A stretch of 32,000 bases of DNA from Nanobdellota archaeon (lineage in GTDB: Archaea > Nanobdellota > Nanobdellia > Nanobdellales > Nanobdellaceae). Under the pieces are notes generated by a model, which saw only the letters and a list, made by a program, of their open reading frames with translations, did no database searches and had not been told where the DNA came from. The translations under genes and the position numbers were made by a program. Shown one piece after another: positions 12,528 through 15,804 of the stretch (positions are counted from its first letter, which is position 1; the number at the start of each line of letters is the position of its first letter). The stretch spans positions 210,001 to 242,000 of the forward strand of contig AP031373.1 in NCBI GenBank assembly GCA_042850255.1. Reading direction: 5' to 3'.

Positions 12528-13189
12528 ACTTAGCAGTATTATTTTCAGGAGGAAAAGATTCTAATTATTCATTATATATTTCTTCAAAATATCGTAATAT
12601 ATCTGTATTATTAAATATTGTTCCTGAAAATAATGAAAGTTATTTATATCATTATATAAATTATAATATAACAAAATTGCAATCAGAAGCTTTAAATATT
12701 CCTTTAGAAACATTTTATGTAAGTAAAGATGAAGAAAAAGTACTAGAAGATGCATTAAAATATTTAAAGGAAAAATATAATATTGAAGGAATTGTAACAG
12801 GAGCAATAAGATCTGTATATCAAAGTACAAGATTTCAAAGAGTATGTAAAAAATTAAATTTATGGTGTTTTAATCCTTTATGGTTAAGAAATGAAAAAGA
12901 ATATTTACTTGAATTATTAAAAAATAATTTTCAATTTATTATAACGGGTTGGTATACATATCCTTTAGATATAGATATTTTAGGAAAAATTGTAGATGAA
13001 AATATTATAAATAAACTATTAGAGTATGGGGAAAAATATAAAATAAATATTGCTGGAGAAGGAGGCGAATATGAAACATTAGTTTTATATCAACCTTTAT
13101 TTAAAAAAAGAATAGTAATTGATGAATATGAAATAAATATTCAAAAGAATTATGCAGAATTTATAATTAAAAAAGCTCATTTACAATGA
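12524..13189 (+). CDS. dph6: diphthine--ammonia ligase (Dph6 / MJ0570-family PP-loop ATP pyrophosphatase)
   Basis: It has the PP-loop VLFSGGKDS at the N-terminus and the GEGGEYETLVL motif near the C-terminus. It is about 220 aa. Confidence 0.8.
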   Translation: MNLAVLFSGGKDSNYSLYISSKYRNISVLLNIVPENNESYLYHYINYNITKLQSEALNIPLETFYVSKDEEKVLEDALKYLKEKYNIEGIVTGAIRSVYQSTRFQRVCKKLNLWCFNPLWLRNEKEYLLELLKNNFQFIITGWYTYPLDIDILGKIVDENIINKLLEYGEKYKINIAGEGGEYETLVLYQPLFKKRIVIDEYEINIQKNYAEFIIKKAHLQ

Positions 13190-13713
13190 TAGGAATAATA
13201 TATACTAATAAAGAAGAATTATCAAAATATGAATTTTTATATCCTGTAGAAAATATATTAAAAGAATTAAATATAGATTACAAGGTTTTTTCATATAAAG
13301 AAAAAATAAAGGAAAATTTAGATAAAATAATAATAACAGGAACTGCAATAATGGATTTCGATTATTTAAATTATATAGATAATTTTAAATTTATAATAGA
13401 AAACAATATCAAAACTTTAGCAATATGTTCAGGTTCCCAAATTTTAACAAAATTATTAGGATATAATTTAATTGATAAAGAAATAATAGGAAAATATTTT
13501 GTAAAAGTTGTTAAAGAAAATAAATTAATAAACAAAGATTTTGAAGCTTATTTTATTATAACAAAAATTCCTAAAATAGATAATAATTTTAATATATATG
13601 GATATATAAATGATATACCAGCATTATTTAATTATAAAAATATATATTTTTCATTGTTTCATCCAGAAGTTTTAAATAAGGATATAATAATAAATTTTAT
13701 AGAATATATATAG
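13186..13713 (+). CDS. class I glutamine amidotransferase-like protein (small stand-alone GATase subunit)
   Basis: The nucleophile elbow is LAICSGSQIL and the His-Glu is in LFHPEV near the C-terminus. It is 175 aa and overlaps dph6 by ATGA. Confidence 0.65.
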   Translation: MIGIIYTNKEELSKYEFLYPVENILKELNIDYKVFSYKEKIKENLDKIIITGTAIMDFDYLNYIDNFKFIIENNIKTLAICSGSQILTKLLGYNLIDKEIIGKYFVKVVKENKLINKDFEAYFIITKIPKIDNNFNIYGYINDIPALFNYKNIYFSLFHPEVLNKDIIINFIEYI

Positions 13714-13767
13714 CCCCTATCAAGGGTGACCTTAGATTAATGAAAAGGTTGAGTTGATAGGGGTACA
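13714..13767 (+). ncRNA. K-loop-capped hairpin followed by ACA (H/ACA-like sRNA candidate)
   Basis: A perfect 10-bp lower stem pairs CCCCTATCAA (13714-13723) with TTGATAGGGG (13754-13763). The internal loop is GGGTG / TGAG. A 5-bp upper stem pairs ACCTT (13729-13733) with AAGGT (13745-13749). The 11-nt loop AGATTAATGAA can form tandem sheared G-A pairs (G13735-A13743, A13736-G13742). ACA lies at 13765-13767. The region is locally GC-enriched in an AT-rich genome. Confidence 0.35.
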
Positions 13768-13820
13768 TAATGAGGAAACCGTCCCAGTCTGAAAAATGAT
13801 GACAGAGAGACGATCTGAAA
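13768..13820 (+). ncRNA. C/D box sRNA (2'-O-methylation guide)
   Basis: The layout is: C box AUGAGGA (13770-13776, one deviation from RUGAUGA), 12-nt guide AACCGUCCCAGU (13777-13788), D-prime CUGA (13789-13792), 3-nt spacer, C-prime AUGAUGA (13796-13802), 12-nt guide CAGAGAGACGAU (13803-13814), D box CUGA (13815-13818). The two 12-nt spacers are the archaeal hallmark. Confidence 0.8.
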
Positions 13821-13866: not shown

Positions 13867-15804
13867 TTATTCTTCTACCTTTTCTTTATCTTTTTCCTTT
13901 CCTCCTCTTCTTCTAGATTCTACCAATATTGCTGCAATTATTATTATTGCCAATGCTACTAATATCCAGAATATTATTGCTTCGGATGGCAATGATATAG
14001 ATGTAACTGGAACTCCTGTTGATGTATATGTTTCATTTAATGAATACAATAATTCTCCATTTTGTGCATTTATTATATTTACATATACTGTTACATTACT
14101 ATTTTCTGCAGTTACATTTAATGGAATTTGTTCTGTATACATTCCTCCAATTTGTACTTGTTCTTCTTCTGGATATACCTCTCCACCTACTGCATATGCT
14201 TGTATTATTAAATTATATATTTGTGTTGAATTTGAAGATAATACTAAGTATATTGTTTTATTCTTTCCAATTGTTAATTGTTCATATCCAATTAATGATG
14301 CTGTAATTGGTTTATATACTGGTTGTGTTCCATTTACATATATATTGTATGTATATTGTTGTGTTATTCCATTATAATTGAATACAAATGTTATTGGATA
14401 ATATCCTGCTTCTAATCCTTCTGGTACATATATTACTACTGGCAATTGTGTAGGTGTGCTTGGTGATAATGTTATTGTTGATAATTGTTGAAATAGATTA
14501 AATTGTTGAGATTCTACTATTGGTGTTACTTCTATACTCATTGGTAAATTACTTTCTAATTCTAAGTATAATTCTATATATTCTCCAGGTTTTACATTAA
14601 ATGTATTTTGATATACATTTAATACATCTACTGGTTGGATATTTTGTTGATTTACTGCTACCGTATAATTATATTCATTAATTTCTACTCCATTTTCATA
14701 TAGATATAATACTATTGTATAATATCCTGGTGCCAATCCTACAGTATTTAATGGTAATGTTAATTCTACTTGTTGTTGTGGACTTACTAATTGAGAAGTT
14801 TCTAAATTATATATTAAATCTCCATATTGATCATATACTAATAATTGTGCTGTTGCATTTGCTGTTTGGTATCCGGGATTTTCCAATAATATATTTATAT
14901 TATATGTTGATGATTGTAATTTACTTAATAAATTGAAGTTTGGTGATATTGATATTACTTGTAATAATTCTCCATTTTCATTATTTGATACATAGAAAGA
15001 TTGTGTTGCATATTGTGTTAATTCCTCTCCATTGTTTAATACAACATTTAATTGTTCTGATACATACATTTGTCCTTGTACATTTTGGAAATAAGAACTT
15101 GGTATACCTACTGTTAATAAATTCTCTCCTGGTTGTAAATTAACATTTTCTTGTGTTTGATATATAATATTTCCTTGAGAATTGTATAATGTTAATGTTA
15201 ATGTTGATGATTGTATATTTGTTTCTGTATTTTGTAAATATACTATTGATTGTACATTTAATCCATATTCTTCTGCTTGTTGTTGTGATACAACTTCTGG
15301 TAATTGTACTATGGATAATGATAAATTATATGGCAAATATGTTATATTATACATTTCTTCTCCAGATACTATTTCTTCCTGTCCATTTGGGTATATTAAT
15401 GATATATTTGCTTGTACTGTAATATTATTTAATGTACTTACAAAACATACTCCATTACCACAACTCTCTACACTTTCATTTGCCAAAGCTAATAATTCTA
15501 CAGGATTTACTGATACTGTGTATATATCATTTCCTGTGCATACTTGTATTGGTTCATAATATTGGTATATTATACTTCCATTTGGCCCATATATATTAAA
15601 ATACAAATAGGACTCAAATGGTGTTTGATTTACTCCTAGTAATTTTACTATGAATGTTAGATTATTGCTAACGTAATTCGCTAATAATGTTGGAGTTTGC
15701 GGTTCTATTATTATTTCTTGTGACTTTACTGCTAATGCTGCTATTCCTAATGCAAAAAATAATGGTATTATTTTCTTAAATGTTGCTACTATTTTGTTAT
15801 CCAT
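13867..15804 (-). CDS. cell-surface (S-layer-like) protein with repeated beta-sandwich modules and a C-terminal TM anchor
   Basis: It has an N-terminal signal/TM (IIPLFFALGIAALAV). A motif of the type L-Y-N-x-x-G-x-I-I-Y recurs (FNIYGPNGSIIYQY, LTLYNSQGNIIYQT, LLVYDQYGDLIYNL, NIINAQNGELLYSL). The C-terminus has the TM IIFWILVALAIIIIAAILV followed by the basic tail RRRGGKEKDKEKVEE. Composition is Q/E/V/Y-rich and K-poor. Confidence 0.7.
   Translation of the reverse strand: MDNKIVATFKKIIPLFFALGIAALAVKSQEIIIEPQTPTLLANYVSNNLTFIVKLLGVNQTPFESYLYFNIYGPNGSIIYQYYEPIQVCTGNDIYTVSVNPVELLALANESVESCGNGVCFVSTLNNITVQANISLIYPNGQEEIVSGEEMYNITYLPYNLSLSIVQLPEVVSQQQAEEYGLNVQSIVYLQNTETNIQSSTLTLTLYNSQGNIIYQTQENVNLQPGENLLTVGIPSSYFQNVQGQMYVSEQLNVVLNNGEELTQYATQSFYVSNNENGELLQVISISPNFNLLSKLQSSTYNINILLENPGYQTANATAQLLVYDQYGDLIYNLETSQLVSPQQQVELTLPLNTVGLAPGYYTIVLYLYENGVEINEYNYTVAVNQQNIQPVDVLNVYQNTFNVKPGEYIELYLELESNLPMSIEVTPIVESQQFNLFQQLSTITLSPSTPTQLPVVIYVPEGLEAGYYPITFVFNYNGITQQYTYNIYVNGTQPVYKPITASLIGYEQLTIGKNKTIYLVLSSNSTQIYNLIIQAYAVGGEVYPEEEQVQIGGMYTEQIPLNVTAENSNVTVYVNIINAQNGELLYSLNETYTSTGVPVTSISLPSEAIIFWILVALAIIIIAAILVESRRRGGKEKDKEKVEE

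Follow-up and report, generated by a model that had tools for sequence, protein, structure and literature searches.

A predicted double-guide box C/D sRNA, counterpart of N. equitans sRNA4, and an H/ACA-type hairpin directly upstream of it in a nanoarchaeal genome

The DNA analysed here, called the window throughout, is a stretch of 32,000 nt (positions 210,001 to 242,000 of contig AP031373.1, forward strand) from a nanoarchaeon that belongs to the same order as N. equitans and to a different family. The genome (G000 in the coordinates below) is a single contig (C1) of 773,326 bp with 23% GC, and its rRNAs have 57-60% GC. Within the window, the convergent ORFs 13186-13713 (+) and 13867-15804 (-) leave a gap of 153 nt, most of which is occupied by an island of 42-45% GC in surrounding DNA of ∼15-20% GC. 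The island contains a box C/D sRNA and, against its 5′ end, an H/ACA-type hairpin (Table 1). The earlier note had confined its element to the C/D sRNA (13768-13820, which is the C/D boxes plus 2 nt per side) and had missed the hairpin. No base separates the hairpin from the stop codon that ends the upstream ORF; the promoter of the sRNA pair would therefore lie inside the 3′ end of that ORF, or else the sRNAs would be cut from its 3′ UTR. TATA-like runs are present upstream of the pair and are uninformative at 15-20% GC.

Table 1. Coordinates of the H/ACA-type hairpin and the box C/D sRNA, as positions in the window.
Feature	Position	Strand	Remarks
H/ACA-type hairpin	13714-13767	+	Evidence: fold, covariation, stand-alone copies, single rRNA match at U1917
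Hairpin lower stem, 10 bp	13714-23 with 13754-63	+	
Hairpin pocket	GGGU 13724-27, GAG 13751-53	+	
Hairpin upper stem, 6 bp	13728-33 with 13745-50	+	
Hairpin loop AGAUUAAUGAA, putative K-loop, 11 nt	13734-44	+	N-GA...GA-N type expected for an L7Ae K-loop
Hairpin 3′ end	U 13764, ACA 13765-67	+	ACA 2 nt before box C
Spacer UA, 2 nt, ACA box to box C	13768-13769	+	2-3 nt in 13/13 genomes of the genus
Box C AUGAGGA	13770-13776	+	Consensus RUGAUGA; position 5 is G here, A in most relatives
D′ guide AACCGUCCCAGU	13777-13788	+	Predicted target: P-loop (helix 80), own 23S nt 2296-2305; N+5 at nt 2300, equivalent to E. coli G2251
Box D′ CUGA	13789-13792	+	
D′-C′ linker AAA, 3 nt	between D′ and C′ boxes	+	K-loop spacing
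Box C′ AUGAUGA	13796-13802	+	
D guide CAGAGAGACGAU	13803-13814	+	Predicted target: peptidyl-transferase ring, own 23S nt 2557-2566; N+5 at nt 2561 (U here), equivalent to E. coli 2509
Box D CUGA	13815-13818	+	

The C/D sRNA has the layout C, 12 nt, D′, 3 nt, C′, 12 nt, D. It thus carries the terminal C and D boxes and the internal D′ and C′ boxes of an archaeal box C/D sRNA, with a departure from consensus at one position of box C, together with the ∼12-nt guide spacers and the short K-loop-type D′-C′ linker that are characteristic of this class. The complete pattern of boxes and spacers has a single match in the window, whereas 100 shuffles that preserved dinucleotide composition gave no match, and the architecture given in the earlier note was exact. 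No match was found in the window to any Rfam family at gathering thresholds; the sub-threshold scores for the C/D sRNA were 24.1 bits for sR60 (threshold 50), 23.4 for sR12 (threshold 38) and 18.3 for SNORD31 (threshold 40). These Rfam C/D models describe particular guides and lineages, and their sub-threshold matches were used as leads only. From the boxes, spacing, complementarity, conservation, covariation and protein genes observed here, we infer the expression and processing of the RNA and the modifications that it would direct. Among public sequencing runs, this DNA turned up in one DNA run, which may have supplied the assembly, and in no RNA run.

The organism's own 23S rRNA gene is located a short distance outside the window (G000:C1:250043-252974 (-)). 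The D′ guide pairs with this rRNA (GCUGGGGCGGCA) over 10 contiguous bp (GCUGGGGCGG), with G:U pairs at guide positions 1 and 7 from D′ and with positions 11-12 unpaired, which is less than the pairing over at least 11 of 12 positions with one G:U that had been claimed for it. The N+5 nucleotide is the second G of a GGGG run and corresponds to E. coli G2251 in an alignment to K-12 rrlH. The P-loop sequence GACUGGGGCGGUC that the earlier note gave for E. coli is correct (rrlH positions 2246-2258), and its placement of the 2′-O-methyl group on the G2251 equivalent agrees with this alignment, with the register kept in 12 homologues, and with the prediction of the same G for N. equitans sRNA4 (Randau 2012). 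Ten base pairs were reached by 8.6% of shuffled D′ guides, and guide matches in a single genome are only suggestive; it is the comparative data that make the targets convincing at the level of sequence.

These comparative data come from 12 homologues in six genera, including N. equitans, in which the core GUCCCAG of the D′ guide and the position of the D′ box are invariant; therefore N+5 falls on G2251 in every homologue. The outer positions of the D′ guide vary (AACC, UGCC, AGCU, GGCU), and all of these variants are able to pair with the invariant rRNA sequence GGCA. The D′ duplex of every homologue also has a G:U two positions from the methylated nucleotide: the guide always keeps U, not C, opposite G2253, and a perfect CUGGGAC target would avoid this conserved G:U. 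It could thus be supposed that the guide serves another RNA, one with A opposite the invariant guide U, and that the P-loop is not its target, but we consider this very improbable. A genome-wide scan found no such site in any tRNA or rRNA, with no match to the D′ guide among the tRNAs of the genome, and the only perfect match was the antisense strand of the gene itself. The remaining genomic matches of 9-11 bp were rejected as targets, lying in AT-rich coding-looking sequence or antisense to tRNA-Phe, as was tRNA-Pro(GGG), whose anticodon loop is unlike CUGGGAC; moreover, the variation in the outer guide stays compatible with the P-loop. On the P-loop reading, the D′ guide would pair with helix 80 of the organism's own 23S rRNA and direct 2′-O-methylation at the G2251 equivalent.

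The D guide also forms 10 contiguous bp with the organism's own 23S rRNA (GUCGUCUCUC), with one G:U at position 1. Its target is in the peptidyl-transferase ring (E. coli 2505-2514), and its N+5 nucleotide, E. coli 2509, is G in E. coli and U in this genus by alignment to rrlH. The same length of pairing was reached by 2.4% of shuffled D guides. Each guide therefore has 10 contiguous bp, N+5 included, where at least 9-10 bp to rRNA or tRNA would be expected of a guide; the earlier note had asked for at least 9 bp to the organism's own rRNA or tRNA. It had found no target that it could recognise for the D guide, a statement superseded by the ring match, and had guessed at a tRNA or a lineage-specific rRNA segment; the rRNA half of this guess came close, given the genus-specific substitutions in the ring, and the tRNA half did not hold, as no tRNA fits.

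A counterpart for both guides is found in N. equitans, where C/D box sRNA4 (positions 90898-90954) is represented by 8800 RNA-seq reads and has the predicted targets GCUGGmGGCGGCA for the D′ guide and CGGmCUCUUCUC for the D guide (Randau 2012, Genome Biol 13:R63, Additional file 2, PMC3491384). We found the sRNA4 gene at its published coordinates in the N. equitans-like genome G020, and in E. coli numbering its targets are G2251 and G2509. The window sRNA or a homologue occurs in each of the 13 genomes of the genus, homologues are also present in other genera of the family, and the alignment of 12 sequences from six genera forms a continuous chain of homologues to sRNA4. The two RNAs share the D′ core GUCCCAG, set in an identical register against the P-loop G, a D guide on ring nucleotide 2509, and the layout C, 12 nt, D′, C′, 12-13 nt, D, and they come from the same order of archaea; both rRNA positions are thus addressed from the same boxes, G2251 from D′ and 2509 from D. 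In contrast, sRNA4 has the boxes D′ AUGA and C′ GUGAUUA, its D guide differs in sequence in step with the rRNA, its flanks lack the upstream hairpin, and it is supported by RNA-seq, whereas the present RNA is known here from sequence alone.

The ring reads GUCGUCUCUC in all sampled genomes of the genus, GUCGGCUCUU in G020 and GUCGGCUCAU in E. coli; two more distant relatives at the level of the class (G021 and G023) also read GUCGGCUCUU. The changes specific to the genus are G2509U and the C at 2514. When the D guide of the source genome is compared with that of N. equitans, the pair at 2509 changes from G:C to U:A and the pair at 2514 from U:A to C:G, and this covariation of guide and target argues, on sequence grounds, for a D guide that is in use.

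The ring is addressed by the D guide only in the source genome and its closest relative, G010, in which a 1-nt insertion shifts N+5 to 2508. The D guide of G005 is an unrelated sequence, and in other members of the genus it is AU-rich and without a match to rRNA, with CAGA as box D beside an intact D′ half (for example, L007:1563-1616 and L014:1483-1536). One explanation for this pattern is that the sRNA is effectively a single-guide RNA, in which only the D′ guide functions and the ring match is a relic or a chance match that leads to no methylation at 2509. The D guide is off the ring in 10 of the 12 aligned homologues, mostly as AU-rich sequence without an rRNA match; the register in G010 is off by one nucleotide; a 10-bp match is obtained with 2.4% of shuffled guides; and no conserved modification of nucleotide 2509 is known to us from either E. 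coli or yeast. We nevertheless consider a single-guide RNA unlikely, because the D guide of sRNA4 from N. equitans, a member of a different family, is predicted to target this nucleotide too, because the two guide changes in the source genome compensate genus-specific rRNA substitutions and are hard to explain without selection, and because the source genome retains a consensus CUGA box D and a GC-rich guide. If the D guide is in use, as we prefer to read these data, it would pair with the peptidyl-transferase ring (2505-2514) and direct methylation at 2509, a U in this genus. We conclude from the sequence comparisons that 13770-13818 (+) is a real and ordinary archaeal double-guide box C/D sRNA and the counterpart of N. 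equitans sRNA4.

Guide-directed methylation at the P-loop G is also known or predicted outside this lineage. Methylation of the G2251 equivalent has been predicted in three archaea (Dennis 2015, PMC4644070), and in yeast snR67 guides Gm2619, the equivalent of Gm2251 (PMC11121408). The present RNA resembles snR67/SNORD31 (U31) in directing 2′-O-methylation, by prediction, to the G2251 equivalent and in having a near-identical guide immediately 5′ of D′: the SNORD31 consensus, in which the guide ACCGCCCCAGU runs straight into CUGA, aligns to the present RNA below threshold. However, the SNORD31 score of 18.3 bits against a gathering threshold of 40 means that the present RNA is not a member by the Rfam criterion; the eukaryotic guide has C where the present guide has U, and hence no G:U; and the second target of snR67 is a different one (Um2724 in yeast). 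This likeness may reflect either common descent or convergence on an invariant target. The same nucleotide, Gm2251, is also modified by RlmB in bacteria and Mrm1/Pet56 in mitochondria; unlike the sRNA, these are stand-alone, protein-only SPOUT enzymes. By analogy, the sRNA appears to do here what the D′ guide of snR67/SNORD31 does in eukaryotes and RlmB does in bacteria.

The genome encodes the proteins that such an RNA would need. Genes for fibrillarin and Nop5 are adjacent and L7Ae is also encoded, which completes the protein set of the C/D sRNP, and from what is established for archaeal C/D sRNPs the sRNA would be expected to assemble with these three proteins. No RlmB or other protein enzyme for Gm2251 was evident in the genome in a search with the RlmB model, because the sole clear SpoU-type methylase is TrmJ-like and scores 28.8 bits against the RlmB model, far under the cut-off of 160. 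A motif scan (∼15 loci) identified at least 14 C/D sRNAs in the genome, most of which can pair with rRNA over 10-12 bp through the D′ guide. Five of 14 have a CAGA box D, and most of these five lack a convincing match of the D guide to rRNA (at most 8 bp). The half-decayed form seen in homologues of the window sRNA, with a CAGA box D and a D guide without a target, is thus also encountered in other C/D sRNAs of the source genome. Outside the window, the D′ guides of the C/D sRNAs at G000:C1:161094 (-) and G000:C1:37362 (+) each form 11 Watson-Crick pairs with 23S rRNA, and their N+5 nucleotides are the equivalents of E. coli C2498 and U2552. We take G2251, C2498 and U2552 to be the 23S ribose methylations made in E. 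coli by RlmB, RlmM and RlmE, so that all three of these protein-made sites are predicted to be addressed by guide RNAs in a 773-kb genome.

The hairpin upstream of box C has the order of elements of an H/ACA guide (lower stem, internal loop, upper stem, apical loop) and a fold z-score of −2.98. Its 16 pairs are formed in 98.6% of the cells of an alignment across the genus, with four compensatory pairs, and the nucleotides of the internal loop are invariant. A covariance model detects the hairpin in each of the 13 genomes of the genus and also, in a second genus, stand-alone copies away from the C/D gene; the stems of these copies are entirely different, and GGGU, GAG, the GA...GA loop and an ACA one nucleotide past the stem are retained. 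The model gave no significant match in genera g3, g4 and g5 or in N. equitans, the weak matches there being noise, and helix 69 of the 23S rRNA, considered below, is identical in two of the three other genera without a copy of the hairpin.

We initially modelled the pocket as an internal loop of 6 + 5 nt and rejected this model: it gave only G:U-rich matches, one of them at U2504, and relatives break the pairing. It was replaced by the pocket GGGU/GAG, which is based on covariation. The target predicted from this pocket, CUC-UN-ACCC, has a single match in 4.4 kb of rRNA, at nt 1980-1988 of 23S rRNA in helix 69, and the motif is present at all in ∼3% of shuffled rRNAs. The unpaired target U is nt 1983 of the organism's own 23S rRNA and corresponds to E. 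coli U1917, which is a highly conserved pseudouridine site. In the source genome, the bipartite pairing at U1917 is 6 + 5 bp and needs the top 3 bp of the lower stem to open, which leaves 7 bp, where the canonical lower stem is 7-9 bp; all homologues could form such a two-part duplex with helix 69, of 11-17 bp. The ACA box is invariant in all aligned homologues and lies 14 nt from the upper stem, in agreement with the rule that places the ANA box 14-16 nt from the pocket-closing pair (PMC4652768). All homologues have an N-GA-(5-9 nt)-GA-N loop, and we counted 9 layers from the pocket to the sheared G:A pairs, where the model requires 10 layers between the pocket and the K-turn or K-loop (PMC4652768).

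With these features, we consider it likely that 13714-13767 is an H/ACA guide for U1917. The hairpin could instead be another L7Ae-binding element or a processing or stability element, such as a 3′-UTR or terminator structure or a 5′ handle of the C/D sRNA. Consistent with this alternative, the hairpin begins immediately past the stop codon of the upstream gene and matches no H/ACA family in Rfam; in the minimum-energy fold of the free RNA the pocket is only 4 + 3 nt, the 11 bp to helix 69 requiring the opening of three lower-stem pairs; a Pfam model search of the genome for Gar1 was empty, although the same model also missed one of four archaeal control genomes; and a second such hairpin in the genome (described below) is without a typical UN target in rRNA. 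A role of this kind would not explain, however, why stand-alone copies in another context, with different stems, have the same GGGU/GAG pocket, putative K-loop and ACA, nor why CUC-UN-ACCC occurs just once in the rRNA, precisely at U1917, when few shuffled rRNAs contain it. The ACA is at a canonical distance from the upper stem, and the genome encodes Nop10 and a dyskerin-type Cbf5 (DKCLD, TruB_N, TruB_C_2 and PUA domains). We thus regard a role other than that of a guide as improbable. As an H/ACA guide, the hairpin would fit helix 69 into its pocket and position U1917 for pseudouridylation by Cbf5-Nop10-L7Ae.

Helix 69 is a precedented target. Sites 1940 and 1942 of H. volcanii, addressed by stem-loop 2 of sR-h45, presumably correspond to E. 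coli U1915 and U1917. H/ACA-guided pseudouridines are established in helix 69 of H. volcanii, and stem-loop 2 of sR-h45 carries an ACA box and acts on this helix, as is predicted for the present hairpin (PMC7075261). The two show no detectable sequence relationship; sR-h45 is a two-hairpin RNA that acts on an unpaired UNUN, whereas the present hairpin is single, would present a typical UN at U1917 with U1915 paired, and is fused to a C/D sRNA. In the source genome, a further C/D sRNA, outside the window at G000:C1:108292 (-), has a D′ guide with 11 bp to helix 69 and N+5 at the equivalent of C1914. The pseudouridine site predicted above is three nucleotides away, so that both guide systems would address helix 69.

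A second tandem of an H/ACA-type hairpin and a C/D sRNA is found at G000:C1:414408-414505 (+), ∼172 kb beyond the end of the window, so that two of the ∼15 C/D loci from the motif scan are preceded by such a hairpin at 2-5 nt. The second hairpin has a lower stem of 7 bp, pocket strands of 8 nt and 7 nt (UGCCAUGC and ACCUCCU), an upper stem of 5 bp and a G-GA...GA-A loop, and is followed by G-AGA-AA-box C. Four genera from two families retain the entire unit, with covarying stems, an ANA box that is ACA outside the genus, and the ANA always 2-5 nt before box C. No typical target of the second hairpin was found in 16S or 23S rRNA; the best candidate, GGAGG-U-GCAUGGC near nt 1013 of 16S rRNA, is atypical, with one unpaired nucleotide or none. 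Elsewhere in the genome, outside the window, a GC island at G000:C1:∼669,960-670,110 (-) contains, by eye, three hairpins with N-GA...GA-N loops flanked by repeated AGCAACGG and GCCAUUUA, which resemble H/ACA-like guides without a lower stem.

Dicistronic units are known in archaea, as tRNA-C/D units in N. equitans (PMC3491384) and C/D-C/D units in Pyrobaculum (PMC6009581). Like the tandems described here, these units have C/D genes that lack a recognisable promoter of their own and lie a few nucleotides from the gene for a stable RNA; the difference is that the partner here is an H/ACA-type hairpin. The literature that we searched contained only tRNA-C/D and C/D-C/D units, and no archaeal composite of H/ACA and C/D RNAs. 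Because only 2 nt separate the ACA from box C in the window, co-transcription of the hairpin and the C/D sRNA is most likely, and the simplest reading is that the transcript is then probably trimmed to the RNP boundaries, which would yield two separate RNPs. That the RNA instead stays uncut, as one composite guide RNA of ∼105 nt with a Cbf5 module and a fibrillarin module, seems to us a less likely outcome, though one that deserves some weight. If true, it would be an archaeal analogue of the eukaryotic composite scaRNAs, and one particle would pseudouridylate helix 69 and methylate both the P-loop and the ring on the same folding 23S rRNA.

Taken as a whole, the explanation that we favour, a C/D double guide for G2251 and 2509, an upstream H/ACA guide for U1917 and probable co-transcription of the two, has in our estimate a probability of about 0.82. 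The C/D sRNA itself adds little to what is known, as guide methylation of the P-loop G is proven in yeast and has been predicted before for archaea, N. equitans among them; the gain is a firm annotation that includes a second target. The D guide provides a small, clear example of a guide that tracks change inside an otherwise very conserved ring. The more interesting by-product is the closely spaced and conserved tandem of H/ACA-type hairpin and C/D sRNA at two loci, which raises a testable co-transcription or physical coupling of the two archaeal guide systems.
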